IMG/VR virus record: IMGVR_UViG_3300028829_000632
Coordinates: 1-57,157 of that record
Direction: 5' to 3' (one strand)
Length of the DNA: 57,157 bases
Source of the DNA: a virus
Lineage: Duplodnaviria > Caudoviricetes
Made by a program: the position numbers and the translations under genes. The notes under the pieces were generated by a model. The model searched no databases and was not told where the DNA came from. It saw only the letters and a program-made list of their open reading frames with translations. Positions 5,178-33,923 of the stretch are shown in pieces. The first letter of the stretch is position 1. Every line of letters starts with the position of its first letter.

Positions 5178-6703
5178 TAGGTAGATTTCTTTTCCCTGAC
5201 AGGCTCATCCCAATCTGGATCGTCAGGATGTGCAAGGTTCCATGAGTCACGCATGTAATGTACTGCCATAGTCAACGCATCTACCTGATCGTCATGGGCT
5301 GAGTTTGGAAAACGGATTAACTCTTCTATAAGGTCATCTGCCCATTTCTTAGAGGTAGGTAGCCATAGCCGTCCTGCTTCCATGATAGGCGTAGCTGCAT
5401 AAACTCTGGATACCTTATCCCGATCTGGCATGTATTCCATGATGGGTAATCCTGATCTGCGTAAGTCCTGAATCAAAGACTGCCCACTTGCTTTCTTTTC
5501 AATCATGCAGACATCAGGTCTATACTGATTATACAGCTTCTGTGCAATACGCCTAAGCTCTGGGTACTCAAACCTACCCTTGACATTACCAAGTAAGATT
5601 AAGTTAGAAGCATAATCTTCTACCCCTTCTTCATCTTGGTCATACATGTAAAATATGCCCCATGTCTGGATAACACTGTAATCAGCCGTGTTACTTGTAG
5701 AGAAAGCAGTGTCCATCGTTTGTATAATAAACTCACAGGTAGGAGGCTCTTCGTATTCCCATTCCTGAATCCACTTCTTTTTAATTAACCCGCCTTCTTC
5801 GGGGGTAGGGTCTTGCATATAGAGAGCATTCCAGTATCTGCTACCATTACTGGCCTTGATCTCATGTTCATCAATACGTAATAGCGCATCAGACTTCCAT
5901 TCTGGAAAATAACTACTACCCACTGGTAAATCAAGCAGTTCTGCTGCTTCTTCGTCTACCCATGCAGGAATCTTAATTACTTCCCACGGGATTGTCTCAT
6001 AATCGCCCATGTCTTCCTGCTGTCGTAGCAACCATCCGCAGAGATCATCATGATGGTAGCGCGTATTAATAATAACAATCGCACCGTTGGGCATAATACG
6101 AGTACGTAGACCAGCAGGGTACCATTCTTTGATGTATCTTCTACCTGCATCTGAATATGAGTCCTCTTCAGACATCACATCATCCAGAATTGCTACATGA
6201 GCACCTCGTCCAGCAATTTGTGACCTGACACCAGCCGCATAGTAGGTACCATTCTGCGTGGTCTTCCACTTACCTGCTGCACGAACGTCACTACGTAGCG
6301 CAACACCGGGAAATATTTTAGAAAACTCTTCAGTATTAACCACATCTCGGACAGACCGACCAAAATCACTAGACAATTGGTCACTATGGGAGACAGTCAG
6401 TATCTCATGTTCTGGGTTTCTACCTATATACCATGCTGGAAACAACTTAGAACAGATAACAGACTTTGATGAACGTGGTGGAAGGAAGACCATCAGTCTT
6501 TTTATTTTTCCAGACTCTAAATCTTTCAGCTTTTCAGAGATTAGTTCAATATGTTTACCCATCTTCCAACCAGACACAAGGCTTGGAGCGACAAGACGTA
6601 CAAATGTGAGGAAATCTGTGTTGGCTTCTAGATTTATTTCTTGATTAAGAAGGTGCTGTAGGTCAATATATGAATCTAGAAAGTTATCTTCAATGTTTAA
6701 CAT
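5165..6703 (-). CDS. terL: Terminase large subunit
   Basis: Walker A-like LPPRSSKS, GRGAHVAILDD Walker B, nuclease DTAFS..DYS and HDDQVDA. Confidence 0.95.
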   Translation of the reverse strand: MLNIEDNFLDSYIDLQHLLNQEINLEANTDFLTFVRLVAPSLVSGWKMGKHIELISEKLKDLESGKIKRLMVFLPPRSSKSVICSKLFPAWYIGRNPEHEILTVSHSDQLSSDFGRSVRDVVNTEEFSKIFPGVALRSDVRAAGKWKTTQNGTYYAAGVRSQIAGRGAHVAILDDVMSEEDSYSDAGRRYIKEWYPAGLRTRIMPNGAIVIINTRYHHDDLCGWLLRQQEDMGDYETIPWEVIKIPAWVDEEAAELLDLPVGSSYFPEWKSDALLRIDEHEIKASNGSRYWNALYMQDPTPEEGGLIKKKWIQEWEYEEPPTCEFIIQTMDTAFSTSNTADYSVIQTWGIFYMYDQDEEGVEDYASNLILLGNVKGRFEYPELRRIAQKLYNQYRPDVCMIEKKASGQSLIQDLRRSGLPIMEYMPDRDKVSRVYAATPIMEAGRLWLPTSKKWADDLIEELIRFPNSAHDDQVDALTMAVHYMRDSWNLAHPDDPDWDEPVREKKSTYWTF

Positions 6704-6709
6704 AACATT

Positions 6710-6738
6710 ATTATAACATATATATTAATGTTAGACAA
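6710..6738 (-). promoter_or_regulatory. sigma70-like promoter of terL (probably leaderless transcript)
   Basis: TTGTCT-17 nt-TATAAT with extended -10 TG; ATG lies 7 nt downstream. Confidence 0.6.
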
Positions 6739-6966
6739 ATGTTAATTTATATCTTAATAGTGTAGTAGTATTGTTTATTAGTCTAATGGTTATATTAAGT
6801 GCGCGCTAAAAAATACTAGATTTTACTGCCCCATAGATTATGGGTACCCTTTCCTCCCTTTGGTATATTATATATATGTACGCGCCCGAGCATTTTCCGC
6901 GCAGGGTACGCGATTTAGTAAAAAACTTTACAAAAAGCTGGAATAACAGATACCTTTTTCCAAGTT

Positions 6967-7017
6967 TAATTAATAAATACTACTTAGCTTCCTTTGGAAG
7001 CAGTATTTATTTAATTA
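6967..7017. repeat. 51-nt bulged hairpin element, copy 1
   Basis: TAATTA ATAAATACT [ACTTA] GCTTCC TTT GGAAGC AGTATTTAT [T] TAATTA. Confidence 0.95.
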
Positions 7018-7189
7018 TATACTAAATACCAACCCCAAACCTCCCCAAATCATCCAAAGGATGTGTAGGGTGGCTAGTTCTGCTACAAGGTAGCAAGGCT
7101 AGTCTTCGACTAAACCTTTGGAAAGCTTATAACTTCTTAAGTTATCCACAGCAAAGCAAAGCTTTGTTGCACGATGAAGCAAGCAGAGC

Positions 7190-7217
7190 TTGACAAGGCT
7201 TTGCAAGCCGCTATGAT
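7190..7217 (+). promoter_or_regulatory. sigma70-like early promoter
   Basis: TTGACA-16 nt-TATGAT just upstream of hairpin copy 2. Confidence 0.6.
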
Positions 7218-7223
7218 GAAACC

Positions 7224-7274
7224 TAATTACTAACTACTACTTAGCTTACTACGTAAGCAGTAGTTAGTTAATTA
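7224..7274. repeat. 51-nt bulged hairpin element, copy 2
   Basis: TAATTA CTAACTACT [ACTTA] GCTTAC TAC GTAAGC AGTAGTTAG [T] TAATTA. Confidence 0.95.
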
Positions 7275-7294
7275 AACAACTTGGAGTGAAATTT

Positions 7295-7459
7295 ATGAAC
7301 ATTGCAACAGCAATCCAAACTATCGAAGATAACAGCAACTTTGTTGCTTATGTCACCGTTGGTGGTAGTGAGCATCTCGACATCCATTCAGAGAATGGAG
7401 AGTTTATTTCTTGCATCCACACCGATGAAACCGACAGGTTTTTGGACATTCAAGGCTAA
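7295..7459 (+). CDS. Early hypothetical protein (54 aa, not in ORF track)
   Basis: GGAG RBS; MNIATAIQTIEDNSNF...FLDIQG*; stop TAA is the first 3 nt of copy 3. Confidence 0.7.
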   Translation: MNIATAIQTIEDNSNFVAYVTVGGSEHLDIHSENGEFISCIHTDETDRFLDIQG

Positions 7460-7507
7460 TTACTAACTACTACTTAGCTTACTTTGTAAGCAGTAGTTAG
7501 TTAATTA
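7457..7507. repeat. 51-nt bulged hairpin element, copy 3
   Basis: Same as copy 2 with TTT loop. Confidence 0.95.
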
Positions 7508-7519
7508 AAGGAGATTGAA

Positions 7520-7717
7520 ATGGAATATGGTCTAGTTGCCTTCGGCATTCTTGGAATAGTTTTTCTGGCTGCTATCAGTTGCTTTGCCGTTAGTACTACT
7601 AACGAGCTGACTAGAAGTAGCAGTGATAAAAGGAATTTCAATCGAAAGATTGAGAAAGCCGCTCGTGAGGAGAGACGGCATCAGCGAGTGATGGCACAAA
7701 TCAAGGCTAATTACTAA
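7520..7717 (+). CDS. Early membrane-anchored small protein
   Basis: AAGGAG RBS; hydrophobic N-terminus then basic helix; stop lies inside copy 4. Confidence 0.75.
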   Translation: MEYGLVAFGILGIVFLAAISCFAVSTTNELTRSSSDKRNFNRKIEKAAREERRHQRVMAQIKANY

Positions 7718-7758
7718 CTACTACTTAGCTTACTTTGTAAGCAGTAGTTAGTTAATTA
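7708..7758. repeat. 51-nt bulged hairpin element, copy 4
   Basis: Identical to copy 3. Confidence 0.95.
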
Positions 7759-7786
7759 AGTAAACAAACAACTTGGAGTTAAAATT

Positions 7787-8071
7787 ATGACTAAGACATT
7801 CAAAGCATTTGCTGGCAAGAACTGGGTAGCCCTGACAAGCCGAGAGGCTTTCAAGGAAGCTGACAAGGCTGGTAAGCCTATCCGAATTGAGTTCGACAAT
7901 GGCTCTTTCAGAGTCATCAAGAACGCTGACAAGTTGCCAGAAGGCAAGCCAGTTGGCTTTAGCAAAGCAGCAGCAGATCGGGAAGCTGCAAAGCAGAAGA
8001 AAGTAGTTAAGCCCGAAGTTGTGGAAGCGGTAGCAACTGCTACAAAGCTATCGCAGTGGCCTTCCCACTAA
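7787..8071 (+). CDS. Early hypothetical protein
   Basis: 94 aa, GGAG RBS, K/A-rich. Confidence 0.75.
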   Translation: MTKTFKAFAGKNWVALTSREAFKEADKAGKPIRIEFDNGSFRVIKNADKLPEGKPVGFSKAAADREAAKQKKVVKPEVVEAVATATKLSQWPSH

Positions 8072-8120
8072 ATACTTTGTGCAGGGCATAGCTAGTTGCT
8101 ATGTCTTGTGCTAAGTATTT
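8070..8120 (+). other. Long G-U-containing stem-loop (terminator or RNase III-like site)
   Basis: AAATACTT..TGCAGGGCATAGC TAGTT GCTATGTCTTGTG..AAGTATTT. Confidence 0.5.
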
Positions 8121-8144
8121 ATATCTTTAACAAAAGGAAATAAA

Positions 8145-8312
8145 ATGTATGATTCCAGACTTCCAAAGTGTGACCAGTGTGGTGAAGCTGCAAAAGTAAA
8201 AGATAGCGGCTTGCTATTGTGTGCGCCATGCTATATGAAAGATGCGAAGCGATCAGCCAGAACGAAGTCTGAATACGTAGCTTCCATCGTAATTGAAACA
8301 CGGAAAGGTTAA
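8145..8312 (+). CDS. Small zinc-finger protein (55 aa, not in ORF track)
   Basis: AAGGA RBS; CDQC...CAPC. Confidence 0.65.
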   Translation: MYDSRLPKCDQCGEAAKVKDSGLLLCAPCYMKDAKRSARTKSEYVASIVIETRKG

Positions 8313-8317
8313 AGCTA

Positions 8318-8578
8318 ATGACGACAAATAATGAAATGAAACATACAGTTTTACTGTCCTTAAAGTATCTCACAGCTTTAGTTGAAGAGAAAATTGACTT
8401 ACTAAAAGCCATAGATTGTGATACTTATGAAGATGGTAGCTATGATTTAAACGATCAGATCATGACTTTTATTAGGACTGTTCAAGAATTAAAAGCTGTA
8501 ATCAATCGTTCAGTGGCAATCGTGCCAAACGACGAACTGTACTATGCCGGGACAATATGGGACGATTACGAAGACTAA
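8318..8578 (+). CDS. Early hypothetical protein
   Basis: 86 aa; stop TAA is the first 3 nt of copy 5. Confidence 0.7.
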   Translation: MTTNNEMKHTVLLSLKYLTALVEEKIDLLKAIDCDTYEDGSYDLNDQIMTFIRTVQELKAVINRSVAIVPNDELYYAGTIWDDYED

Positions 8579-8626
8579 TTACTAACTACTACTTAGCTTC
8601 CTTTGGAAGCAGTAGTTAGTTAATTA
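8576..8626. repeat. 51-nt bulged hairpin element, copy 5
   Basis: Inner stem GCTTCC TTT GGAAGC. Confidence 0.95.
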
Positions 8627-8647
8627 CTACAACTTGGAGTGTTGAAA

Positions 8648-8923
8648 ATGCAGATGCTAACAAAACAGAACGAAAAAGACTTAGGCAAAAAAGTAATTAA
8701 GTTTTTTACGCCTTGGTCGAACTGGTCTTGGTATGTCACCGAAGGTGAGCAAGAAAGCAACGGCGACTGGTTGTTCTTTGGCTTTGTAGAAGGCATGGAG
8801 CGAGAATGGGGTAGCTTTAGACTGTCGGAACTTACCAGTGTAACTGGTCCGATGGGTCTCAAGATTGAACGGGACCGTTGGTTTGATACCCCGGTCACAG
8901 AATTTTCAACTGAAAACGTCTAA
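8648..8923 (+). CDS. DUF2958-like protein
   Basis: KFFTPWSNWSWYVTE..LFFGFVEG.E.EWGSF.LSEL....GP.GL.IERD..F. Confidence 0.8.
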   Translation: MQMLTKQNEKDLGKKVIKFFTPWSNWSWYVTEGEQESNGDWLFFGFVEGMEREWGSFRLSELTSVTGPMGLKIERDRWFDTPVTEFSTENV

Positions 8924-8933
8924 GGAAAATCTA

Positions 8934-9563
8934 ATGTATAACCGCGACAATAAAATGATCCAGAAGTATTCCGATCAAGGTTCAACCCAAACTGCTATTG
9001 CAGCAATGTTTGTTATCTCTAGCATTAGGACTTTTACTTGGCTGTTGCCAGATATGATGGACAACTATCGTGACAAAGGTATGAAATCATTTAATACTTT
9101 AATGCCAAAACAGAAAGAGGGTATTAAATATGTAATGAAAAATAAGGAATGGCTGTACGATTTGGTGCAGAGCTACAAGGCTGGAGATATTTATCCAGAA
9201 GAGTTTCTGATATCTTTGCAGCGTATCCCGTGCATTGGCTTGGTAAAAGCAGGGTTTATCATGCAACTCACCACTGGTGAAGCTGGATGCCTTGACTGTC
9301 ACAATCTAAAGCAGTATGATGTGGACGAAAACACATTCAAAGTAAATGGAAAAGACAAGGGCAAGATAACCGCCGCTAGCTTTAACAAAGCAAGAAAGTA
9401 TCTTGCAGTGTGTAAGGAAATCGGTGGCAGTGAAGTACTTTGGAATAACTGGTGCGATCTAGTAGCAGAAAAATATCCGAAGCACTTTGAAGCTGGTGAC
9501 GATGTATCTTGGTTGCATAGCAATGCTATCATGGGAATCCATCAGACAATGGCAAGGGCATAG
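8934..9563 (+). CDS. HhH-GPD DNA glycosylase-fold protein (putative)
   Basis: LQRIPCIGLVKAGFIMQL..G...CLDCHNL resembles a helix-hairpin-helix plus catalytic Asp; AAGGA RBS before MYNRD. Confidence 0.5.
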   Translation: MYNRDNKMIQKYSDQGSTQTAIAAMFVISSIRTFTWLLPDMMDNYRDKGMKSFNTLMPKQKEGIKYVMKNKEWLYDLVQSYKAGDIYPEEFLISLQRIPCIGLVKAGFIMQLTTGEAGCLDCHNLKQYDVDENTFKVNGKDKGKITAASFNKARKYLAVCKEIGGSEVLWNNWCDLVAEKYPKHFEAGDDVSWLHSNAIMGIHQTMARA

Positions 9564-9566
9564 ACT

Positions 9567-9791
9567 ATGACAAGTGAAGCAATATCAATCGAACCTAATA
9601 TGTATCAAGCCATAGCTTTGAAACATGGCTTGAGACTTTGGATCAGGCATGGTATAAAAGCTAATACTAGATGGACTGTCACCAACATGCTGCGAACTGT
9701 CGGCAAGTTTACTGGTAAAAGCTATAAGCGTAGTAAGCAAGGACAGGAAGAAGCATTGGCAGATATCATTGCATTTATAGAGGGTAATTAA
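9567..9791 (+). CDS. Early hypothetical protein
   Basis: 74 aa, tightly packed. Confidence 0.65.
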   Translation: MTSEAISIEPNMYQAIALKHGLRLWIRHGIKANTRWTVTNMLRTVGKFTGKSYKRSKQGQEEALADIIAFIEGN

Positions 9792-10016
9792 ATGGAAGAT
9801 TTTTCGACACTTATGTTCCATGAAATGGACGAGGACCAACACGCAGCATTTGAAGCAGCGTGGATCATAGGCTGGGCAAAAGATTTACAGGTCGAATGTG
9901 GTATGTCCGCTAAAGAAGCAGAAGAGCAAGCACCTTATGATTATGAAAAGTATCTTAATCAAGAGGGGTATACGCAACGAGACATGTACATAGAATTAAA
10001 CAGAAGTAGAGGGTAA
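9792..10016 (+). CDS. Early acidic hypothetical protein
   Basis: 74 aa, abuts upstream stop. Confidence 0.65.
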   Translation: MEDFSTLMFHEMDEDQHAAFEAAWIIGWAKDLQVECGMSAKEAEEQAPYDYEKYLNQEGYTQRDMYIELNRSRG

Positions 10017-10020
10017 TTAA

Positions 10021-10206
10021 ATGAATGCATATGTCACAGAAAAAATATGTAAAGTTTGCAAAGGCATGACAGAACGTATGGAATACATTCTAACTGTAGA
10101 TAACACTGATATATATTACTGTGATGCCTGTGAAACTGAACACCACTCAACGCCTGTGGAGTATGTAACTCCAGAGGTTATGCTTAGTGAACTATACGGA
10201 GAATAG
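10021..10206 (+). CDS. Small zinc-ribbon protein
   Basis: CKVC...CDAC. Confidence 0.65.
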   Translation: MNAYVTEKICKVCKGMTERMEYILTVDNTDIYYCDACETEHHSTPVEYVTPEVMLSELYGE

Positions 10207-10208
10207 CT

Positions 10209-10391
10209 ATGAAGTATGAAAGCACTGACGACCTTTCTACCCTTCAAATTCTGGAACTTAGTGAGCGTATAGCAGAAGCTATGAAAGTAAAGGATGCGTT
10301 TACTACTGAGGCAGACGTTTTTTATTTTGAAACGAATGACTATCTTGCTGAACTTACAATCAATAAAAACACCATCAATATAAAAAACTAA
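10209..10391 (+). CDS. Early hypothetical protein
   Basis: 60 aa, GGAG RBS. Confidence 0.6.
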   Translation: MKYESTDDLSTLQILELSERIAEAMKVKDAFTTEADVFYFETNDYLAELTINKNTINIKN

Positions 10392-10439
10392 CGGAGAATG
10401 TGTAAGCAACAGTAATTAAATTTTATAAGGAAACAAAAT

Positions 10440-10541
10440 ATGTATGATACGACGACACTAAAAGTAATTACATTAGTTATTACTACTGTGGTGATAGTGG
10501 CAGTAGTATTTGTTGTATATAAATATACAAAGGATATGTAA
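10440..10541 (+). CDS. Single-TM micro-protein (33 aa, not in ORF track)
   Basis: AAGGA RBS; VITLVITTVVIVAVVFVVY. Confidence 0.5.
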   Translation: MYDTTTLKVITLVITTVVIVAVVFVVYKYTKDM

Positions 10542-10542
10542 T

Positions 10543-10773
10543 ATGGCTATGTTATTTCTGTATCCCAGTAAGAAAAATATGAGAGAAAATATTGGTAAGC
10601 CCTTGAAGTATGAGGAAACATCTTTCTTTGGGCCAGAGTACTTGACCGATGGCGAATTGTATGGTAGTAATAGGCCATCAGTTACGGGTATCAAAACCGC
10701 TGAAGGTAAGAAAGCTACTGAGTTTTTTGCTCAGGTTATTATGGAAAATTCTTTAATCAAGAGGGTAATATAA
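10543..10773 (+). CDS. Hypothetical protein
   Basis: YPSKK...IGKPL.Y.ETSFFGPEY...EFFAQV. Confidence 0.65.
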   Translation: MAMLFLYPSKKNMRENIGKPLKYEETSFFGPEYLTDGELYGSNRPSVTGIKTAEGKKATEFFAQVIMENSLIKRVI

Positions 10774-11013
10774 ATGTTTAAGACTGTGAAACTTACTGCT
10801 CGTGTCAACGCCAAGTCACCAAAGTATGGTTATGGTTTCCATTTAATTAGTAATGGGTGGCGTGTAGATGTGCCTTACCATAGCATTACAGTGTTTGGTA
10901 AGTCATCTGTGAAGCCTACCATTCGATCAAAGCGTAGCGGTCTTCGCTGGATTGTGGAGAACAATCGCTCTCGCCTTGTTCGTGTGGCGCACAATGTAGG
11001 ACAAGGAAACTAA
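10774..11013 (+). CDS. Basic hypothetical protein
   Basis: 79 aa, GAGG RBS. Confidence 0.65.
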   Translation: MFKTVKLTARVNAKSPKYGYGFHLISNGWRVDVPYHSITVFGKSSVKPTIRSKRSGLRWIVENNRSRLVRVAHNVGQGN

Positions 11014-11022
11014 TATAAACAA

Positions 11023-11109
11023 GTGAGCGTGGTGAAATTGGTAAACACAACAGACTTAAAATCTGTCGCCAGCTATGGCTTGCGGGTTCAAGTCCCGCCG
11101 CTCACACCA
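11023..11109 (+). tRNA. tRNA-Leu (anticodon TAA)
   Basis: GTGAGCG/CGCTCAC acceptor, ACAGA-CTTAAAA-TCTGT anticodon arm, long variable arm, GGTTCAAGTCC, encoded CCA. Confidence 0.95.
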
Positions 11110-11120
11110 AAGGAAAATAA

Positions 11121-11264
11121 ATGATAAAATCTAAATCAAATACAGTTATAGAACCGACCAAGAAAAAGACAAGTATTGGTGGTAATCATGCTATGGTATC
11201 AAGTAAAACTATGAATAAGAACAGGCGCTCCCGCTACAAAAAATATAGAGGGCAGGGACGATAG
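11121..11264 (+). CDS. Small basic peptide ending YRGQGR (47 aa, not in ORF track)
   Basis: AAGGA RBS; KKKTSIG...MNKNRRSRYKKYRGQGR. Confidence 0.7.
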   Translation: MIKSKSNTVIEPTKKKTSIGGNHAMVSSKTMNKNRRSRYKKYRGQGR

Positions 11265-11266
11265 CA

Positions 11267-11380
11267 ATGGTTGAGATACTCACTTTAATAGTAGAAGCAA
11301 CTGTGTTGCTGGGTGTCTGGGTTAATACAGTTATTAATTTAATTCTTTACAGAAAAAGGAAAAAAGATGCCAAGGTTTAG
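11267..11380 (+). CDS. Single-TM micro-protein (37 aa, not in ORF track)
   Basis: Hydrophobic helix then RKRKK. Confidence 0.5.
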   Translation: MVEILTLIVEATVLLGVWVNTVINLILYRKRKKDAKV

Positions 11381-11606
11381 AGGCTGGGTTTTTCTTGAAG
11401 ATGAGCTACCCTATATAGGATCAGGTGCTAGGCTATTAGAGGCCAAAGTAGGATGGAAATGGGTAAGAGCTAAGTCAGCTACCTATCCTATCCCACAAAA
11501 CTATTCACGCATTTCTTTAACTAAATGGAAAAATATCTTGAGGCGTACTGAAAAGCGTGGCATACCTTGGGATACAACATGGGAGACAGGCAGTGATGGC
11601 AGATAA
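11367..11606 (+). CDS. Hypothetical protein
   Basis: 79 aa, AAGGA RBS, W/R-rich. Confidence 0.6.
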   Translation: MPRFRGWVFLEDELPYIGSGARLLEAKVGWKWVRAKSATYPIPQNYSRISLTKWKNILRRTEKRGIPWDTTWETGSDGR

Positions 11607-11832
11607 TGGTTGGAAGACCAGAGGCAGAGACATCACCAGTTTCTATGAACTGTTTGGTGCCGAGATAGAGTACAATCTAACAGAAGGTAAGAACCCTATC
11701 GTTGTAGTCTATGGTTCATTGGCAGCAGCTATAGATGCAGCGTTCCATCATGCACCTTCCAATGAGGATGCTATGTTTGTAGTTACATCGTTATTGAATA
11801 AGAAGTTAGAAGACTTGACAAAAGAAGACTGA
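11596..11832 (+). CDS. Hypothetical protein
   Basis: Likely start MADNGW overlapping upstream stop. Confidence 0.6.
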   Translation: MADNGWKTRGRDITSFYELFGAEIEYNLTEGKNPIVVVYGSLAAAIDAAFHHAPSNEDAMFVVTSLLNKKLEDLTKED

Positions 11833-11842
11833 TATGTATATA

Positions 11843-11919
11843 CTCCACATAGCTCAACTGGATAGAGCAACAGCCTTCTAAGCTGTAGGTTGTAGGTTCG
11901 AGTCCTACTGTGGAGGCCA
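11843..11919 (+). tRNA. tRNA-Arg (anticodon TCT)
   Basis: CTCCACA/TGTGGAG acceptor, ACAGC-CTTCTAA-GCTGT, GGTTCGAGTCC, encoded CCA. Confidence 0.95.
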
Positions 11920-11926
11920 ACCAACT

Positions 11927-11977
11927 CTATTAGTAACTACTACTTAGCTTACTACGTAAGCAGTAGTTACTTAATAG
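11927..11977. repeat. 51-nt bulged hairpin element, copy 6
   Basis: CTATTA GTAACTACT [ACTTA] GCTTAC TAC GTAAGC AGTAGTTAC [T] TAATAG. Confidence 0.95.
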
Positions 11978-11990
11978 TAAGGAGAATGAA

Positions 11991-12173
11991 ATGTATAGTG
12001 AGACCACAAGTTTTAAGGCTAGTAAGATCGTATGTGATACCCATCGTAACCCTTCCTATACTATTACAAAGGTAACTGTTACCGATATTGAAGGCAATGA
12101 GATTGAACATAAGATTTTTCACAATGACGACATGACTGTAGAAATAGAATTAAAAGAAGAAGTATTGACATGA
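11991..12173 (+). CDS. Hypothetical protein
   Basis: AAGGAG RBS directly after copy 6. Confidence 0.7.
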   Translation: MYSETTSFKASKIVCDTHRNPSYTITKVTVTDIEGNEIEHKIFHNDDMTVEIELKEEVLT

Positions 12174-12316
12174 CAACAGCATGTTGTAATGTATGTAAGC
12201 TCGACAACAATAAAGAATACTGTGTTGGATGTAACCGCACAGTTGAGGAGATACGTCTAGCAGGCGTAGAAACTAAAAACAAAAGAAAGGAAAAAGATAA
12301 TGCTAGTAAAGTATGA
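12170..12316 (+). CDS. DUF1289-like Cys-rich small protein (48 aa, not in ORF track)
   Basis: ACCNVCKLD...YCVGCNRTVEEI matches the PC..VC.LD..C.GC.RT..EI pattern; ATGA coupling. Confidence 0.65.
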   Translation: MTTACCNVCKLDNNKEYCVGCNRTVEEIRLAGVETKNKRKEKDNASKV

Positions 12317-12527
12317 TTATAGTAAAGAAGGAATCTGCACGGCAGAGGAAGCCCTGCGCCGGGTATGTAACTCTGATCTCATCGACTCATTAGAACACAT
12401 GTACGAGATGGATGGTGACATGCTCGTCTCCACATACAATAAACTAATAACTACCATGCACACCTTGATGAGGATTAAGGGGTCTCTTGACAAGGGTGGT
12501 GAGGTTATAGGTGATGACAACAACTAA
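12300..12527 (+). CDS. Hypothetical protein
   Basis: 75 aa, AAGGA RBS. Confidence 0.6.
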   Translation: MLVKYDYSKEGICTAEEALRRVCNSDLIDSLEHMYEMDGDMLVSTYNKLITTMHTLMRIKGSLDKGGEVIGDDNN

Positions 12528-12729
12528 GTTTGAAAGTAAAGAAGAAGTTTTAAAGTATCTTAATGAAGTCTATGATCCGTGGATAACTCCAGTGCTGGAA
12601 GAGTACTGTAGTGTGTCTAATGATATACAATTAGACGAGGTAAACCACTGGGTTGAGAGTGAAATTCTAATCATGGAGAATGAATATGAGCAATGGATCA
12701 ACGACACTTACATCACTCCGGGTCGATGA
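12511..12729 (+). CDS. Acidic hypothetical protein
   Basis: 72 aa, GAGG RBS. Confidence 0.6.
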   Translation: MMTTTKFESKEEVLKYLNEVYDPWITPVLEEYCSVSNDIQLDEVNHWVESEILIMENEYEQWINDTYITPGR

Positions 12730-12877
12730 ACTGATGGCAGAGGGTAAAGCCTCACGCCGTAAGGCATGGGTAATGAGTGAGATTTTGGATACGCTTCAGC
12801 AAGAGGGTGGCGAACGTGCAAGAGAAGAGGCACGAGAATATATAATTAAATATTGTGGTATAAAGGTAGGTGACTGA
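12680..12877 (+). CDS. Hypothetical protein
   Basis: 65 aa, GGAG RBS, overlaps upstream gene. Confidence 0.55.
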   Translation: MNMSNGSTTLTSLRVDELMAEGKASRRKAWVMSEILDTLQQEGGERAREEAREYIIKYCGIKVGD

Positions 12878-13050
12878 TGTCTGGCAATGTAATCTACCCT
12901 GAGTGGACAACCAATCCTAAACTAGATGTCCCGTGGGAATCCGTTAGAGATTTTGTATTCTCATTTGGATACAACCCTGATGATACCAAAGAGTTGGATG
13001 AGTTTATCTACAAAGCTTTTGATCTTATAGTAACTGAGGATAACCAATGA
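12877..13050 (+). CDS. Hypothetical protein (57 aa, not in ORF track)
   Basis: MSGNVIYPEW...VTEDNQ*; coupled at both ends. Confidence 0.6.
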   Translation: MSGNVIYPEWTTNPKLDVPWESVRDFVFSFGYNPDDTKELDEFIYKAFDLIVTEDNQ

Positions 13051-14668: not shown

Positions 14669-14853
14669 TGGCAAAAAATCTATGGGAAAAAGAACGTAAC
14701 CATTTGTTTCGTGATCTCACTAGACAGTACAGTGACGAAGGCTACACAGCCAAGGAAGCTAAGAAGCTTGCCAAGGAAGAGATTGACGAGATCATGGAGG
14801 ACAAGGAAAGCTTTGTAGATAATCTATGGGAGGAAACTTTCAATGATGGTTGA
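14668..14853 (+). CDS. Hypothetical protein
   Basis: MAKNLWEKER...ETFNDG*. Confidence 0.65.
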   Translation: MAKNLWEKERNHLFRDLTRQYSDEGYTAKEAKKLAKEEIDEIMEDKESFVDNLWEETFNDG

Positions 14854-15361
14854 TGAAGAATACCTTAACTTGTTTAACGCGCTCGACAAACTTACAAAAC
14901 TTCCAGCAAAAGTATGTACCAAATGTAAAAAAAATAAACTAATAACTGAGTATTATAAAAAAGGTGATCGACGTTACTCACCTCTGCGTCGAAAAGCAGA
15001 ATGTAAAACATGTGTAAGAGAATCGCAACAAAAATATAAAAAAGAAAAACCTTTTAATATGAGACATTCTCGTATTAAAAACCGTTCTCGTATAAACAAA
15101 TTACCTTTTAATATAACAGTAGAATACTTAGAGTCTATTTGGACTGATACCTGTCCTATTCTGGGACTTAAGTTAGACCTTTTAGCCACTAAACATGCTG
15201 ACAATGCGGCACAATTAGATCGCATTGTACCTGATAAAGGATATGTAAAAGGAAATGTTTCTTGGTTATCTGCCAGAGCTAACCGATTAAAAGATGACGC
15301 AACAGCAAAAGAACATATGCAAATTGCACAATGGATGTTAGGACAACTGAATGACGGCTAA
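14843..15361 (+). mobile_element. Free-standing HNH-type (homing) endonuclease gene
   Basis: CTKC..CKTC zinc finger; TCPILG...LDRIVPDKGYVKGNVSWLS.RAN.LK; more AT-rich than its flanks. Confidence 0.75.
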
Positions 15362-17838: not shown

Positions 17839-19470
17839 ATGAGAGCTATTGTAGACATAGAAACAGATGCTATTGATGCTACAGTTATCCACTGCATCGT
17901 AGCAAGAGACTACGACAACGGTACTGAGTGGTCGTGGGTAGGTGAGGAGTGTCACGAGTTTGTTTCGTGGGCTAAGAATGTAGAACAATTTATAATGCAC
18001 AATGGCATTAGCTTTGATGCACCTGTCTTAAACAGACTGATAGGTTCTACAATACAGCTACGACAGATTCGTGACACCCTCATTGAATCACAGTTGTTTA
18101 ACCCTGTCAGAGAAGGAGGACATTCCCTCAAGGCATGGGGCGAGAGACTGAGTGATATTAAGATAGAGTTCAAAGAGTTTGATTGTTACACGCCAGAGAT
18201 GCTAGAGTATTGTAAGCAGGACGTTAGGCTTACACACAAGGTAGCACAACAGCTAGACAAGGAGGGAGTAAAGTTTTCTACAAAAAGCATACGCTTAGAA
18301 AATTGTGTTAGAGCTATCGTAGATCAGCAAGAGAAGAATGGTTTTACTCTTAACCTTCGTGGAGCCATGATGCTGCTATCTGAGTTACAAGAAGAAGAGG
18401 AAGGCTTAGTGGCTACAGCAACTGAGATGTTCCCGCCTAAAGAACTACAGCTAAAGACAAAGATTAAATACATACCCTTCAACATTGCTTCTCGTAAGCA
18501 GATAGCAGAACGCCTGATGGCTAAAGGCTGGAAGCCTACTAAGCATACAGACAAAGGTAATGTTATTGTCAATGAAGAAACTCTAAGCCACATTAAGATG
18601 CCAGAAGCTCAGATGTTCAGTAGGTTTTTCTTGCTACAGAAAAGAACAGGTATGCTTAAATCGTGGATCAAAGAGTGTCACGATGACGACAAGGTACGAG
18701 GCAGGGTAATGACACTGAAGACTATCACGGGCCGTATGGCTCACAATAGTCCTAACATGGCACAAGTCCCAGCCTCGTACAGTCCTTATGGTAAAGAGTT
18801 CAGATCACTATGGACCATCTCTGATCCAGACAATTATAATTTAATTGGTACTGATGCTTCTGGTCTAGAGCTACGGTGCCTTGCACATTACATGAAAGAC
18901 AAGGAGTATATACATGAAGTAGTTAATGGAGATGTACACACAGCCAACATGAAGATGGCAGGTCTCACCAACAGAGATCAGGCAAAGACTTTTATCTATG
19001 CCTTTCTCTATGGTGCTGGTCCTGCTAAGATTGGTAAGGTTGTTGGAGGTGGAGCGGCACAGGGCAGAGAGCTTATAGAAAGGTTTCTAAGCAACATGCC
19101 AGCTCTGAAAAGACTTCGTACACAAGTCACTGAAGCTGCAACCCAAGGGTCCATCAAAGGATTAGATGGTAGGTGGTTGCAGATACGGTCTGAACATGCT
19201 GCGCTCAATACCTTGTTGCAAGGTGCAGGAGCAATCATCTGTAAGGAATGGTTGGTTCAGATGACAAAGCAAATCAATGAGATGAAACTAAATGCCAAGC
19301 TTGTAGGTTCTATTCACGATGAGTATCAGTTTGAAGTTAGCATAGAAGATACTCCTCAGTTTTGTGAGATAACCAAGCAAGCTATTCTGGACACTGAGAA
19401 AATACTAGGAGTTATCTGCCCCTTAGATTCAGAATATAAAGTAGGAAAAACATGGGCAGAGACCCATTAA
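17839..19470 (+). CDS. polA: DNA polymerase family A (T7-like)
   Basis: Exo DIET, HNGISFD, YCKQDV; motif A DASGLELR, B RDQAKTFIYAFLYG, C IHDE. Confidence 0.95.
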   Translation: MRAIVDIETDAIDATVIHCIVARDYDNGTEWSWVGEECHEFVSWAKNVEQFIMHNGISFDAPVLNRLIGSTIQLRQIRDTLIESQLFNPVREGGHSLKAWGERLSDIKIEFKEFDCYTPEMLEYCKQDVRLTHKVAQQLDKEGVKFSTKSIRLENCVRAIVDQQEKNGFTLNLRGAMMLLSELQEEEEGLVATATEMFPPKELQLKTKIKYIPFNIASRKQIAERLMAKGWKPTKHTDKGNVIVNEETLSHIKMPEAQMFSRFFLLQKRTGMLKSWIKECHDDDKVRGRVMTLKTITGRMAHNSPNMAQVPASYSPYGKEFRSLWTISDPDNYNLIGTDASGLELRCLAHYMKDKEYIHEVVNGDVHTANMKMAGLTNRDQAKTFIYAFLYGAGPAKIGKVVGGGAAQGRELIERFLSNMPALKRLRTQVTEAATQGSIKGLDGRWLQIRSEHAALNTLLQGAGAIICKEWLVQMTKQINEMKLNAKLVGSIHDEYQFEVSIEDTPQFCEITKQAILDTEKILGVICPLDSEYKVGKTWAETH

Positions 19471-19474
19471 TAAG

Positions 19475-21037: not shown

Positions 21038-21436
21038 ATGCACTGGGAGTATGATAAGGACAGCAACATCCACAAATACTTTGGATTTGTTTACTGCATT
21101 ACAAACAAGAAAACAAAGAAAGCCTACATAGGCTGTAAGCAGTACTGGTCTTTCCGTAAGGGTAAGAAAAAAACTGAATCCAACTGGAAAGTATATGCAG
21201 GTTCTAGTCGTCACCTCAAGGAAGACATTGATAAGCACGGTAAAGATAATTTTAGATTTGAAATTCTAGGAGAGTTTAAAAATAAAAGAAGCATGAAGTA
21301 TTATGAGTGCTACCACCAAGTAACACGGCATGTTCTGACTGCTACACTGGAAGGTACAGATGAGCCAGCCTACTACAACAACTGGGTAGGCGGTAAGTTC
21401 TACAGACCAGTACAGGATTTTAATTTAGATGAATGA
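21038..21436 (+). CDS. GIY-YIG-family endonuclease-like protein
   Basis: FGFVYCITN.....AYIGCKQ...W..YAGSS. Confidence 0.75.
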   Translation: MHWEYDKDSNIHKYFGFVYCITNKKTKKAYIGCKQYWSFRKGKKKTESNWKVYAGSSRHLKEDIDKHGKDNFRFEILGEFKNKRSMKYYECYHQVTRHVLTATLEGTDEPAYYNNWVGGKFYRPVQDFNLDE

Positions 21437-29768: not shown

Positions 29769-32700
29769 TTAATTTTTTTCTGCTTGAGGTCTTAAAGATA
29801 TACCAGCATACTCTTGATATATGTTATACAAATCATTAACTAATTCTATAGGTAAACTTTTGCTTCTTATATATTGATTTATAACCTCATCGGCTGGATT
29901 ATCAGGCATAAAGGCACCTTCCTTAGATGAGCTATTGCCAACAATATCAAGCGGATTGCCAGCATATCCAGCATAAATAATATCATCCTTAACATCATAC
30001 CAGCCATCATCACTTATAATTCTATAAAGTTTAGTACCATCAATAGTTTTATCTTGTCCTTTTGCATCAGTGTATTTTATTTGTTTAATGCGATCTATTT
30101 TACCAGCAAGGTCTTGCATACCTTTATACTTTAAGTCTTGATAATATCTATACTTATCTAAGATATCTTGACGGCGTTCTGAAGTATAAACTTCGCTAGG
30201 CAAGTCCCTTAAATAACTTACAAATTCATTACCAGTTTGCTGAATTGCTTTTACATCTTGAGATAAAGTATAACCAATAGACTTATCAACATTCATAGTC
30301 TGAGGTTTAATGCCTGTCCCCATATGCCACTCAATATCTTTACGTTCAAGTGGAAATCCTTTAGAGGTTCTGGCAGCTAATTTTACTTCTTCAGCTTTCT
30401 CTTCAGCTTTAAGAGACGCCCAGTATTGTCTAATAATCTGTGTAGTTCCGGGTTCAAAAGACTCAGCTAATTCTAACAAAGCTCGTTGTGTATTTTCTAA
30501 GGACAGCCCTTGCTCACCAACTGCACCAGAATAAATACCTCCTTGATCTTTAGTATCCCCATCTATAATATTTAACAAAGCTTGTGTTAAAAACTTTGGA
30601 TTGGTATAAGGACCAACAGCAGCACCAGCAAGACCAGATAAAGACTCTTCTACTTCTGTATCAGTTAGTTCTTTACCGCCCAGAAGGCTTCCCATTATAA
30701 CTCTGATGGGTTGCTTTGCAAAATCATAAGCATCATACTGGGAAGAGTTTCTAAAGTTAGTAATAATTTCACCGTCTTCGTTTTCTACAAGAGCAGTGTT
30801 GTGCTGACGCACAGTATTTTTATACCAAGGAGCCATTACTTGCTCAAGACCAAAGGCAGTTTCTTTATCAATACCTAAGTTCTCATTAGAGTTATTAATC
30901 ATAGCTTCTGTACCAGCAGTTACTGCTCCAAAAGCAGCTAGGCGGTTTAACCCTGCTCTAATCTGTGCAGCATTCTTATTTTTAATACCATCCCTGACAT
31001 CAGTAACACCCAGCTTAATAACATTCTTTGTTGTTCGTACAATCTCAGAGGGGAACAAAGCATATGTACCAATAGGCAAACGAGATAGCTGACGAGCAAG
31101 AGGAGCCGCTGCATTGTATGTAGGTATGGTTGCCCTAACCCTATCAATAGCTAACTTTTCTAATGCCGCAGTATTTAAATCAGGAAACATTTTCTTTACA
31201 GAATTAAGTTCACTTTCAAAAGACAATAACTTAGCATAGGTATCAGGTAGACCATAAGCCTTACCAGCTTTTTCAATACCTTTTCTATAGCCAGTAGTTA
31301 TAATATTCTTAGGATTAGTAAGCGATTGATTAACATTTCTTACAATCATTTCTGCTGAAAGATCAGAGTCAATAAGCCCTGATCTTTTGAGCATTTCTAA
31401 TTTTGTAATAGCAGCAGGATTATTTAATTTTATTTGTTCTATAGTAGTCTTAACCGCTTCTCTAGCTGCCTTATAAACAAAAGGATTTAAGATGTGTCCG
31501 TTAGCAGCGGTCATAGTTATAGCGCCTATGGTATTTAAAGCATAGGCTGGGATGTCAAAAATAGTTTGTGATGCCTGACCAAGCGCAGCAAGGTTTTGCA
31601 CAGGAGCCATGAACTTATTAGCTTGCTTACTAGAATCAAACAAGTTTACACCGTTACGAATGTATTCAGCCATGTTGTCGCTCATATACATACCCTGTAA
31701 GACACGAGCATTGTTTGCTCTATTACCAAGATTTTCTCTTACAAAATTATCTATGTTACTTTCAGGTCTTATGTACTCAGTTTTTTTCTTATTCTGTCCT
31801 TTGCGAGGACCACTTTTATATTTTACTTGATTACCGTCAGCGTCTAAAACATCTACTTTTTTTGCTATAAGTTTTTTTCTTTCTATCTTTTCAATACGTG
31901 TAGGAAGCTTTGGAAATAAACCACCCATAACAACGAGGCCATCACCTTCCATAACTTTTCTAGCATATTTATCTACATCAGCTAAGTACTGAGCCTGACC
32001 AATAAGTCTTTGTTGAGTATCAAAAGTTTTTTCTATTTTCTTCAGAGGATCGTCTACCTCACCTAAGAGTTCTTTTACTTCTTTGTCAAGAACTTTCTTT
32101 TTAAGTAGAGATTTAACTGCTGGCCTATTGGGAACACTTTCAGATAATCGTACAGCAGCATCAGTAAATAAATCACCATCTCTCTTGGCAAGACTTTTAA
32201 CCATAGCTACAATAGTTTCGTTCTGATCTCCAGCTTCAGTAATGCCCTGCTTGTCTAATAGCTTTCTCATGTTTGTAACTCTACTGGCTATTACGTCGCT
32301 TGTACCCTTAGACCATGTAGCTCTGTTACCAGCAACAGCCTTTTTTATCTGGTTTAAATATGCAGGATTATTTTCTGCCTCATAGAATGTAGTAAAATAA
32401 ACTTCTCCATCCTTGTGACCAAAACCTAACTTGTTCTTTCCTTTAAGCCCTGCTGCTGTATTAAATAATTCTTCATTTGCAGGAATATATTCTCTAATTT
32501 CATCTACAGCTTTTCGGAAGCCTTCTGAAAATTCATCTCCACCCTCACCAGTGCTCAGATAATTATTAACTTTATCTTTCTGAGCTTGACCTAATGTCTT
32601 GTATTCCTTTTTAAAAGCTTTTACTAATCTCTTACCTTGGAATTGTAGGGCGTTAACATTTTCTCTAGATACTCCAGCATCTGCAAGAGGTTTAGCTAAT

Positions 32701-33923
32701 GCGCCGTCACTTCTCAGCAGCCTACCAAGGAATGTGTTTGCATTGCCAATAGTTTCAATTACTTTTCCACGGCTATCTACATTAGGACCAGTAGTATCAA
32801 GGTCTTTGAAAGCAGCTTCTTCAGCGTCTTCTAATCTTTTCTGAACTTCAGGAGTTCGGAAATATCCTTTCTTACGAAAAGCTGCTTCAGTATCTGCTTG
32901 CCCTACAATGTCATCTTCAAACTTAGCTAGTTCAGATTGTTTACCTCTGAGCTTGCTAATACCCTTACCAATACCAGACAAACCGACACCAGCAACAGCG
33001 CCTAGCCCTGTCATAGCTGCAAATTGTTCGTAGTTAAAGTCTTTGCTATCATCAATATTCATGCCAAACTGTTGTTCAGAAGCATCAAATGCTCCCGTAT
33101 AACCAGCACCTGTAGCAGCAGCTTTGCCAACTTTTTTAACAGCGGCTTTAGTGGCAGCAGATTTAGCATGTGTTTTTAAAATTTCTGCTGGGATAGCACG
33201 AGACACGCCTTCGGTAACAGCACGATTAACTGCACCTTTTTGATACCCTGCCTGTGTAAGACTTTTAATTAATTCCTTTTTAAATAAATTAATTGCAACC
33301 TTAGATGCCCCTCTTTGACCAGCCATTTTGGCTACGCCACCCACACCAAAACCAAATACTAAACTACCCCATGTAGTAGGATCAAGTGCTATTTGTTTAG
33401 CGGCACGCGCTCTTGAACCCCAATCACTGTCAGTCTTTTCATACATATCAAGTGAGTCAATCCATGCTTGTTTGGCATCATCCTTCATATCAAATGTAGT
33501 TAAAGCAGTTTCAGCTATACCTTTACCAGCTACATTAGCAAGACTCCAACCAATCTCAGAATGTCTTTCCTTTAGCCACTGAGCAAGTTTAGCTGGGTCA
33601 CGCTGCATTTCAATAGGTATTGGACCCTTTTCACTTTGATAAATCTTTCTGGCAGAATCAAGCCATGCTTTATTAGTATCAAGACTATCCATAGTAAATG
33701 TTGCATCAGTAGGTTGTGGGCCTTCTGCTGCTGCCTGTTCCATAGGACTAGGAATAGGTTCTGCTAAATTATCAAAAAGATTTGTTGTAGGTTTAGATTC
33801 TAAATTATCAAAAAGATTTGTTGTAGGTTTAGATTCTAAACTACTAATAGGTTTAGTTTCTAAACTGTCAAAAAGATTTGTTGTAGGTTTAGATTCTAAA
33901 CTATCAAAAAGATTTTCAGCCAC
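29769..33923 (-). CDS. Large internal virion / DNA ejection protein
   Basis: 1384 aa, last of tail/ejection module; N-terminal NLFD.LE.KP repeats. Confidence 0.7.
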   Translation of the reverse strand: MAENLFDSLESKPTTNLFDSLETKPISSLESKPTTNLFDNLESKPTTNLFDNLAEPIPSPMEQAAAEGPQPTDATFTMDSLDTNKAWLDSARKIYQSEKGPIPIEMQRDPAKLAQWLKERHSEIGWSLANVAGKGIAETALTTFDMKDDAKQAWIDSLDMYEKTDSDWGSRARAAKQIALDPTTWGSLVFGFGVGGVAKMAGQRGASKVAINLFKKELIKSLTQAGYQKGAVNRAVTEGVSRAIPAEILKTHAKSAATKAAVKKVGKAAATGAGYTGAFDASEQQFGMNIDDSKDFNYEQFAAMTGLGAVAGVGLSGIGKGISKLRGKQSELAKFEDDIVGQADTEAAFRKKGYFRTPEVQKRLEDAEEAAFKDLDTTGPNVDSRGKVIETIGNANTFLGRLLRSDGALAKPLADAGVSRENVNALQFQGKRLVKAFKKEYKTLGQAQKDKVNNYLSTGEGGDEFSEGFRKAVDEIREYIPANEELFNTAAGLKGKNKLGFGHKDGEVYFTTFYEAENNPAYLNQIKKAVAGNRATWSKGTSDVIASRVTNMRKLLDKQGITEAGDQNETIVAMVKSLAKRDGDLFTDAAVRLSESVPNRPAVKSLLKKKVLDKEVKELLGEVDDPLKKIEKTFDTQQRLIGQAQYLADVDKYARKVMEGDGLVVMGGLFPKLPTRIEKIERKKLIAKKVDVLDADGNQVKYKSGPRKGQNKKKTEYIRPESNIDNFVRENLGNRANNARVLQGMYMSDNMAEYIRNGVNLFDSSKQANKFMAPVQNLAALGQASQTIFDIPAYALNTIGAITMTAANGHILNPFVYKAAREAVKTTIEQIKLNNPAAITKLEMLKRSGLIDSDLSAEMIVRNVNQSLTNPKNIITTGYRKGIEKAGKAYGLPDTYAKLLSFESELNSVKKMFPDLNTAALEKLAIDRVRATIPTYNAAAPLARQLSRLPIGTYALFPSEIVRTTKNVIKLGVTDVRDGIKNKNAAQIRAGLNRLAAFGAVTAGTEAMINNSNENLGIDKETAFGLEQVMAPWYKNTVRQHNTALVENEDGEIITNFRNSSQYDAYDFAKQPIRVIMGSLLGGKELTDTEVEESLSGLAGAAVGPYTNPKFLTQALLNIIDGDTKDQGGIYSGAVGEQGLSLENTQRALLELAESFEPGTTQIIRQYWASLKAEEKAEEVKLAARTSKGFPLERKDIEWHMGTGIKPQTMNVDKSIGYTLSQDVKAIQQTGNEFVSYLRDLPSEVYTSERRQDILDKYRYYQDLKYKGMQDLAGKIDRIKQIKYTDAKGQDKTIDGTKLYRIISDDGWYDVKDDIIYAGYAGNPLDIVGNSSSKEGAFMPDNPADEVINQYIRSKSLPIELVNDLYNIYQEYAGISLRPQAEKN
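33763..33914. repeat. 36-bp-based intragenic tandem repeats (NLFDxLExKPxx)
   Basis: Four TCAAAAAGATTT cores plus one truncated unit. Confidence 0.85.

Follow-up and report, generated by a model that had tools for sequence, protein, structure and literature searches.

The early region of a phage genome, IMG/VR record IMGVR_UViG_3300028829_000632, is punctuated by six copies of one 51-nt bulged hairpin, here called class A, and this raises the question of whether such hairpins work in the transcript, in the DNA, or as repeats kept for no use to the phage. The window, as we call the whole stretch of DNA analyzed, is the complete record of 57,157 bases in one contig. We find that class A is a well-supported structured motif, found undescribed in Rfam 15, in 50,697 GenBank phage records, and in the literature searched, and that hairpins of the same architecture with other cores stand beside it in related phages. 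By analogy with known systems, we favor, tentatively and with somewhat less than even confidence, the reading that the hairpins are intercistronic signals for RNA processing or stability of the T7 RNase III type, which double as recombination break-points.

The six copies, each 51 nt and every one on the + strand (Table 1), lie where a preliminary description of this DNA had placed them. Searching the window with the 27-nt core ACTACTTAGCTTNCNNNGNAAGCAGTA and allowing up to 3 mismatches, we recovered exactly 6 matches, and 100 dinucleotide shuffles gave none (mean 0.00). The copies refolded into the bulged geometry described earlier, with outer stems of 6 bp and 9 bp, a left bulge ACTTA, a 6-bp inner stem, a 3-nt loop, and a single extra T on the right arm. 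RNA folding energies ranged from -15.2 to -19.8 kcal/mol, with z scores of -3.8 to -5.0, for the five of six copies that were folded. Copies 3 and 4 are identical across 51 nt, and all stem differences among the six copies are Watson-Crick double changes, confirming that they are compensatory throughout. The flanks had also been correctly described: a ribosome-binding site and ATG after copies 2-6, the upstream stop codon in copies 3-5, and a tRNA before copy 6. The last copy begins 8 nt past tRNA-Arg (11843-11919), and an equivalent placement is seen in the related loci L001, L019, and L034. The class A sequence holds stop codons in all three frames. Its bulge nearly repeats the adjoining stem arm (ACTTA beside GCTTA; in a sister class, E, AGTAG beside AGTAT), so two pairing registers are possible in both classes. 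A trans-acting guide or ribozyme arm was considered and rejected, as the complement of the bulge region, with up to 2 mismatches allowed, matched 26 times where 28.4 were expected, and its exact matches were the six self-matches only.

Table 1. Hairpins and associated features of the window, in order of position
Feature	Position	Strand	Remarks
Promoter-like site TTTACA-18-TACCTT	ends 9 nt upstream of copy 1	+	Precedes copy 1
Class A copy 1	6967-7017	+	In a non-coding divergent region, ahead of the putative structured leader
Structured non-coding stretch	7019-7221	+	Between copies 1 and 2; five relatives aligned; G.U-containing hairpins
Promoter-like site TTGACA-16-TATGAT (11/12)	7190-7217	+	Host-type; ends 5-6 nt before copy 2, according to where the hairpin start is set; putatively active
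Class A copy 2	7224-7274	+	Followed by GGAG and the ATG of a 54-aa gene
Class A copy 3	7457-7507	+	Its opening TAA is the upstream stop; GGAG and ATG come next
Class A copy 4	7708-7758	+	Includes the upstream stop; fam3 gene next
fam3	7787-8071	+	Conserved small early protein; only protein common to all hairpin-bearing early modules
Type B intercistronic hairpin	8070-8120	+	51 nt, 22 bp, several G.U; begins at the fam3 stop codon
Class A copy 5	8576-8626	+	Inside the window-specific insertion 8318-8647; begins with the upstream TAA
Promoter-like site TTGACA-18-TATACT (11/12)	11815-11844	+	Host-type; precedes tRNA-Arg and copy 6
Class A copy 6	11927-11977	+	Between tRNA-Arg and a 60-aa gene
Empty site TTAATAAG	19467-19474	+	Between the PolA stop and a TTGACA promoter; class A hairpin here in L001-type relatives

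Relatives of the element show that its structure is under selection. The exact core (T, the bulge ACTTA, GCTT..AAGC, and A) is present in 38 IMG/VR stretches, and a slightly shorter core in at least 120 marine metagenome stretches; a covariance model search was used to reach more diverged copies, and a looser IMG/VR pattern yielded mostly chance among the matches listed, with 5 new structured copies among them. The set of 49 distinct copies has pairing in 96.1% of its cells and double changes at 15 of the 21 pairs (156 cells). The covariation score of this set was reached in 0 of 500 shuffles, and slid controls were at most 53.8% paired. The 38-sequence set already has double changes at 12 of 21 pairs, and covariation is strong in up to 174 distinct relatives, which bears out the earlier claim of a structure-selected element. 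The invariant part comprises the T-A pair under the bulge, the bulge ACTTA itself (48/49), and the first four pairs above it (GCTT/AAGC), while covariation is unrestricted at the fifth inner pair. The loop sequence is unconstrained: ten different loops of 3-4 nt occur (TTT 15, TAC 12, TAT 8, TGT 4, AGT 3, and others). The inner stem, which reaches 8 bp in three of the 49 copies, can then end in a 4-nt loop. At the right-arm bulge, 37 copies have T, 5 have A, 2 have G, and 5 have no extra base. Paired length is steady, with a modal total of 21 bp (64/159) and 19-23 bp in 142 of 159 copies.

The carriers, whose immediate-early operon the hairpins punctuate, are a widespread group of uncultured marine podoviruses. 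DNA of the window was found in marine or seawater metagenome runs (23 runs listed), and the closest cultured terminase, at 40% identity, belongs to the Pelagibacter phages HTVC027P and HTVC023P. The 51-nt element had no real match in the GenBank phage records (a single match, E = 4), and no near relative of the hairpin region was found among GenBank phages. Scanning positions 6000-13000 permissively against Rfam 15 (E-value up to 10), we obtained only two tRNAs above the gathering score. The literature searched, which included PMC9599517, PMC12753301, and preprint 10.64898/2026.10.21.760802, with supplements outside its scope, does not describe the element. Across bacteria and archaea, taking one genome for each of 185,579 species, the core was found in 1 contig, a 5.5-kb contig of a metagenome-assembled genome. 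Class A occurs in 5 of 78 IMG/VR loci selected by their terminase, and the copy number varies from 1 to 6 across five relatives searched whole. One relative, L276, is 97-98% identical to the window elsewhere but has the first 1.2 kb of the early region swapped for 2.3 kb, and no class A copy lies within 6 kb upstream of its terminase gene. The element is thus part of an exchangeable early module and not of the replication or packaging core; being modular and non-essential, it is a poor candidate for an origin, a packaging site, or an obligatory promoter. The replacement in L276 (reverse complement, about 7740-10017) contains a GC-rich insert, a series of tandem repeats resembling GGCGTAAGGCAA, and, immediately ahead of ribosome sites, TCTTATATATAAGA palindromes; L349 carries CAGTAGTACTACTG palindromes in place of TCTTATATATAAGA.

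The hairpins are strictly placed with respect to genes. In 127 of 194 distinct contexts, a ribosome site and an open reading frame (ORF) of at least 40 codons follow within 75 nt downstream on the same strand, and the antisense control gave 0. In 95 of the 194, an upstream frame of at least 40 codons ends in or at the left foot. This strict orientation and the placement from stop to ribosome site fit a message signal. Scoring the sequences directly upstream as promoters, we found at least 10/12 for copy 2 only, with copies 3-5 at 4-7/12. A site matching 7190-7217 precedes the second hairpin of L024, similar sites occur in L011, and promoter-like sites lie 33-38 nt upstream in L004, L008, L018, and L028; in relatives, sites of this kind precede first copies. 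Judged from its promoter-like site, copy 2 would sit at or near the start of an early transcript. No U tract follows the stem, and a terminator scan listed only the inner stem of copy 1. The structured stretch 7019-7221 is retained in L027, L024, L019, and L034, with no ORF conserved except one doubtful; it could be a leader, or a small RNA freed if the flanking hairpins are cut.

The preliminary description had raised the possibility of an N4-type hairpin promoter, in which the inner hairpin on the template strand would be recognized by an injected virion RNA polymerase. N4 early hairpin promoters have a 5-7 bp stem and a 3-nt loop; the inner stem and loop of class A fit these sizes, and in both cases small 3-nt-loop hairpins lie upstream of early genes. 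The loops on the other strand do read GTA or AAA in the window, as described, but a G-N-A loop is found there in only 13 of the 49 distinct copies, and some copies have the longer inner stem and 4-nt loop. For protein searches, 67 distinct ORFs were scanned with Pfam and/or PHROGs, drawn from 89 greedy ORFs of which the other ~22 are mostly <100 aa or antisense artefacts. In these 67 no RNA polymerase, integrase, other recombinase, or transposase was recognized, in agreement with the earlier view, and two virion proteins of 1384 aa and 832 aa had no Protein Data Bank (PDB) sequence match. The 1384-aa protein is only 27% identical in the relative G001, which is otherwise 80-96% identical to the window. 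Class A further differs from N4 promoters in its free loop sequence, its 21-bp hairpin, and a putative start inside the stem. With near-consensus host-type promoters present and adjacent, and with the first early module of L276 lacking a copy, a hairpin promoter of this type is scarcely credible.

Comparing the window with its relatives, we see that the order of genes between hairpins differs among the window, L027, L024, L019, and L011/L034. Against L027, homology runs to the end of copy 3 and resumes at the fifth copy of L027, leaving in L027 a hairpin-bounded 607-bp segment with two extra genes. In L024, an extra segment of ~200 bp (a gene and a hairpin) likewise ends exactly at copies. The third difference is a window-specific insertion, 8318-8647, with an 86-aa gene, copy 5, and a ribosome site, which is bounded ATG to ATG and not by hairpins; two of the three indels against these close relatives therefore end exactly at hairpin copies. 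An X3 DNA contig joins 8316 to 8648, in agreement with the arrangement of L027 and L024, but its shorter side has 29 letters and it is not relied upon. At the PolA junction, where the window has an empty site, the L001-type copy has its outer stem built upon the local stop-codon sequence. Copies resemble others of the same genome more than orthologous ones, which fits ongoing recombination or conversion. Judged from these alignments, the hairpin copies are places where relatives delete, insert, and reorder single early genes. The earlier suggestion of a site for exchanging early genes thus holds in that the element bounds exchangeable genes whose order varies, and falls short at the insertion that runs from ATG to ATG.

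Mobility of this kind could also belong to a miniature palindromic repeat, selfish or neutral and akin to REP, MITE, or Correia elements, spreading and homogenizing in early regions and kept because it is harmless. REP/BIME and Correia/NEMIS elements are short intergenic palindromes in operons, with compensatory changes and effects on mRNA ends; class A palindromes share the placement and the compensatory changes, and may share the effects. The patchy distribution and variable copy number given above, the empty site filled in L001-type phages by a copy fitted to the local stop, and the homogenization of scaffold sequences within genomes are all points in favor of such a repeat. A harmless passenger is less easily squared with a bulge invariant in 48 of 49 copies, an architecture kept across unrelated cores, strict sense orientation, and exact placement between stop and ribosome site. 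Neither a transposase nor a RAYT was found in the 67 ORFs; the GTAG tetranucleotide is not invariant, and class A, unlike REP, is not a host-genome repeat, its core being confined to the single contig among 185,579 species. We regard this explanation as decidedly improbable.

The architecture extends beyond class A. A lower stem of ~15-17 bp leads to a 5′ bulge of 3-6 nt, above which an inner stem of 4-6 bp is closed by a small loop; the whole measures ~51 nt and ~21 bp. The core of class E is AGTAG followed by AGTATC-TTAC-GATACT, that of class G is GTAA or GTGA followed by GTTC-TTAC-GAAC, and that of class C is TTAA followed by GTAC-TAAC-GTAC. Core classes are mixed in the arrays of one early operon, invariably pointing the same way as the genes and sometimes on a common outer-stem scaffold, and G002 has A, A′, and E. 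A GTAG/CTAC tetranucleotide lies in the stem beside the bulge in classes A, E, and C, with the variants AAT/ATT and CTCT/AGAG. At least 6 further 5′-bulged core classes were seen (L283, L302, L304, L357-L367; for example, L304:4280-4344), many with a TTAC loop and often on the class A scaffold.

Counting mismatched cells in the sense-strand lower stems, we find 15 G.T vs 0 A.C in class E (513 cells), and 22 G.T vs 4 A.C in all non-A classes (1167 cells), at several positions and in several lineages. Type B, of which 14 distinct variants with compensatory changes were found, behaves likewise in being tied to one strand: folded as DNA, it reaches -12.8 kcal/mol on the sense strand vs -7.7 on the antisense and folds on the sense strand only. 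In L011, type B sits at the boundary of the very genes that are separated by copy 3 in the window. The presence of G.T without A.C on the sense strand of sister classes points to the transcript. The architecture overall appears to be a sense-strand feature, and most simply an RNA feature.

An RNA hairpin of this kind may have a protein partner, and the candidate encoded nearby is fam3. Its invariant residues are W13, P31, R33, V43, and N46, within a sequence that has a GSFKV.KN motif and a variable tail rich in Lys, Ala, and Glu. None of its 101 relatives has a name, no Pfam or PHROG family was found for it, and its AlphaFold model (predicted local distance difference test, pLDDT, 73) had no fold match at E <= 0.001 in PDB or BFVD; ESM Atlas gave nothing usable. 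Twenty-five terminase-selected relatives offer 3 kb or more of early region; fam3 is present in 11 of these loci, all 11 with class A, E, or C hairpins, and the other 14 have neither. Using a class-blind detector of bulged hairpins, we counted 47 sense hairpins in the 11 fam3 loci (3-5 each) and a single one across the 14 loci that lack fam3; the terminase side gave none in any of the 25. In 12 additional fam3 loci, 54 sense 5′-bulged hairpins were found. Elsewhere in the window genome, the sole other match of this detector is at position 995 (+), in the late region, with a lower stem of 11 pairs, and is probably due to chance.

From this co-occurrence, one may picture the hairpins as RNA operators, with fam3 or another phage factor reading the 5′ bulge and mini-hairpin and controlling translation, antitermination, or cleavage for each cistron, much as in N/boxB or coat-protein/operator pairs. 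The fam3 gene often directly follows a hairpin, and the invariant bulge with its flanking pairs suggests sequence-specific reading. However, fam3 lies within 1-2 kb of the hairpins, and linkage within one module would give the same table and explain co-inheritance equally, so the partnership is a lead and not a proof. Several core classes in one genome are a poor fit to one-protein, one-site pairing, and fam3 offers no family or fold match that would speak for such a role. We consider the operator explanation unlikely.

The reading we favor, that of processing or stability signals, can be set out as follows. Host RNA polymerase would start at the sigma-70-type promoters, and the hairpins would be transcribed within a polycistronic early message. 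In the sense RNA, each would fold between the upstream stop codon, at its left foot, and the next ribosome-binding site, beyond its right foot. The resulting two-turn irregular helix would be cut or bound by a factor recognizing double-stranded RNA, for which host RNase III is the candidate on the T7 precedent and a phage factor such as fam3 the alternative. Each cistron would thereby gain defined, protected ends. Since the same 50-60 bp recur every few hundred bases, the copies are also where recombination rearranges single early genes, and cassette shuffling would be a by-product of the repeats.

The model for this reading is the set of T7 RNase III sites (R0.3, R0.5, R1, R1.1, R1.3). Like class A, they are repeated irregular hairpins of about two turns between early cistrons, and within-genome copies share a core that includes the asymmetric unpaired part. 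In T7, the early operon is transcribed by the host polymerase; in the window, the promoter-like sites suggest the same. Folding T7 regions in the same way, at positions that we take to be those of the RNase III sites, we obtained 21-27 pairs and a shared ...CTCAAGGTC..GGCCTTTATGATT. Each T7 site holds 3-6 G.U pairs, against next to none in class A; class A also has a one-sided 5-nt bulge where T7 has an internal loop, and the hairpins studied here come in several interchangeable core classes. Bulges protect antisense RNAs from RNase III.

The PeSL elements of T4-type phages offer a second comparison. A PeSL is defined as a sigma-70-like promoter joined to a stem-loop terminator (Arbiol 2010, PMC2839356; Comeau 2014, PMC4122927). 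As described there, PeSLs are, like class A, intergenic, run from the upstream stop to the downstream Shine-Dalgarno sequence, and lie ahead of small genes of unknown function, and recombination between copies inserts, deletes, and reshuffles genes (PMC2839356; PMC4122927). Measured against that account, class A differs in having a near-consensus promoter only directly before copy 2 and before the tRNA preceding copy 6, in lacking a U tract, and in conserving the bulge and its neighboring pairs.

Several observations weigh against the processing reading. The near absence of G.T that had been noted for class A, compared with RNA-type stems, is real: a merged set of 2289 cells has 2164 Watson-Crick, 9 G.T, and 5 A.C cells, and an independent anchored alignment (174 distinct copies, 2651 cells) has 11 G.T and 8 A.C. 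These counts come from the 2289- and 2651-cell sets, as the row of the class-blind detector (A.C 20) is a shifted-register artefact and was not used. Wobble is ~7-fold rarer in class A than in class E. As DNA, either strand of class A folds to the same -11.6 kcal/mol, so that a cruciform, or a hairpin on one strand or the other, could physically form. The core stays identical even in phages whose terminases have diverged to 72-80% and polymerases to 55-60% identity with those of the window; RNase III would not require such invariance, which implies a sequence-specific partner. L001-type relatives have one copy upstream of a promoter, and by our reading the strongest -10 candidate of L160 reaches into the left foot of a class E hairpin, so not every copy need be fully transcribed. 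Four of the 23 runs were compared with the window, as assembled contigs, in which RNA ends are not visible. Two metatranscriptome runs among them contain one piece of 152 nt inside fam3 (0 differences) and another of 221 nt spanning 8040-8260 (6 differences), and neither piece demonstrates transcription or RNA ends; DNA contigs break at the repeats, as assemblies do.

Part of this evidence is what one would expect of a site acting as DNA, that is, a cruciform or single-stranded hairpin read by a host or phage enzyme for strand exchange in the manner of attC, for nicking, or for replication priming. In addition to the strict Watson-Crick pairing of class A and the equal folding of its strands, its extrahelical bases do not vary, copies mark the exact ends of some indels, and a copy is present or absent at the junction of PolA and the single-strand binding protein gene. 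The phage also encodes an endonuclease VII/HNH-like enzyme, a GIY-YIG endonuclease, a gp2.5-type annealing protein, and a Cas4-like exonuclease, but no tyrosine or serine recombinase and no HUH transposase was found in the 67 ORFs. In the same arrays, sister classes show strand specificity (22:4), each of the 127 oriented contexts runs with transcription, and one cassette was inserted ATG to ATG, off the hairpin. The likeness of copies within a genome would result from ordinary homologous recombination as well, as with PeSLs. The preliminary description had called the element probably DNA-level; with G.T but no A.C on the sense strand of sister classes, and with a G.U-rich hairpin replacing the element in a relative, this is not the better reading. 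We hold a DNA-level site to be unlikely in general, though class A itself may have a DNA-level role.

A more specific comparison is that with integrons. Class A shares with attC an imperfect palindrome, fixed extrahelical bases, location at cassette boundaries, and a frequent overlap with stop codons, and it had been likened to attC for this reason. It differs in showing no strand asymmetry and in the one insertion that is not bounded by sites, and no integrase was found in the ORFs scanned, although a host enzyme might act in its place. It stands in early operons of lytic-type phages, attC in bacterial arrays, and its near absence from bacterial genomes also argues against membership among attC sites, which we do not uphold. 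A further version, in which hairpins and fam3 would form a self-contained cassette system of lytic marine phages, appears rather improbable. In it, the hairpins would be strand-specific recombination sites read in single-stranded form by way of the 5′ bulge and mini-hairpin, and fam3 or a host enzyme would be the partner that captures, excises, and reorders single immediate-early genes with no known recombinase family involved.

The rest of the genome is that of a tailed phage. Its structural genes encode the large and small terminase subunits, a portal, a major head protein, and tail fibre proteins; its replication genes encode a T7-type primase/helicase, DNA polymerase A, a gp2.5-like single-strand binding protein, and the Cas4-like exonuclease. 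Further genes encode a ribonucleotide reductase, ThyX, Hsp20, an endonuclease VII/HNH-like protein (14843-15361), and a SegE-like GIY-YIG endonuclease (21038-21436). The last two lie in the replication block and could aid recombination; no link to the hairpins was found. The 1384-aa protein of the virion block (29769-33923) is without a family match, and its neighbors are 66-90% identical in G001; it is fast-evolving and possibly related to host range. Repeats are seen at 50812-51081, where a late gene has five 45-nt tandem repeats inside, and at 46818-47897, where the 1116-aa tail fibre gene has many diverged repeats with a periodicity of 36/90/126 nt. Bases 1-300 are repeated at 56577-56876 (98% identity), close to the opposite end; either this repeat is terminal, or a circularly permuted genome was assembled with an overlap.

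Three features set these hairpins apart. A single architecture carries several interchangeable cores, each of them invariant in itself; the hairpins form mixed arrays, with one hairpin per gene boundary; and they are always inherited with the tiny protein fam3. If they are processing or stability signals, they would show how phages without an RNA polymerase of their own organize the takeover operon from single-gene units that can be swapped. Should class A instead act as DNA, cassette exchange would have gained a new kind of site. On either reading, the hairpins would provide compact, orthogonal-looking RNA parts and a testable protein-hairpin pair.

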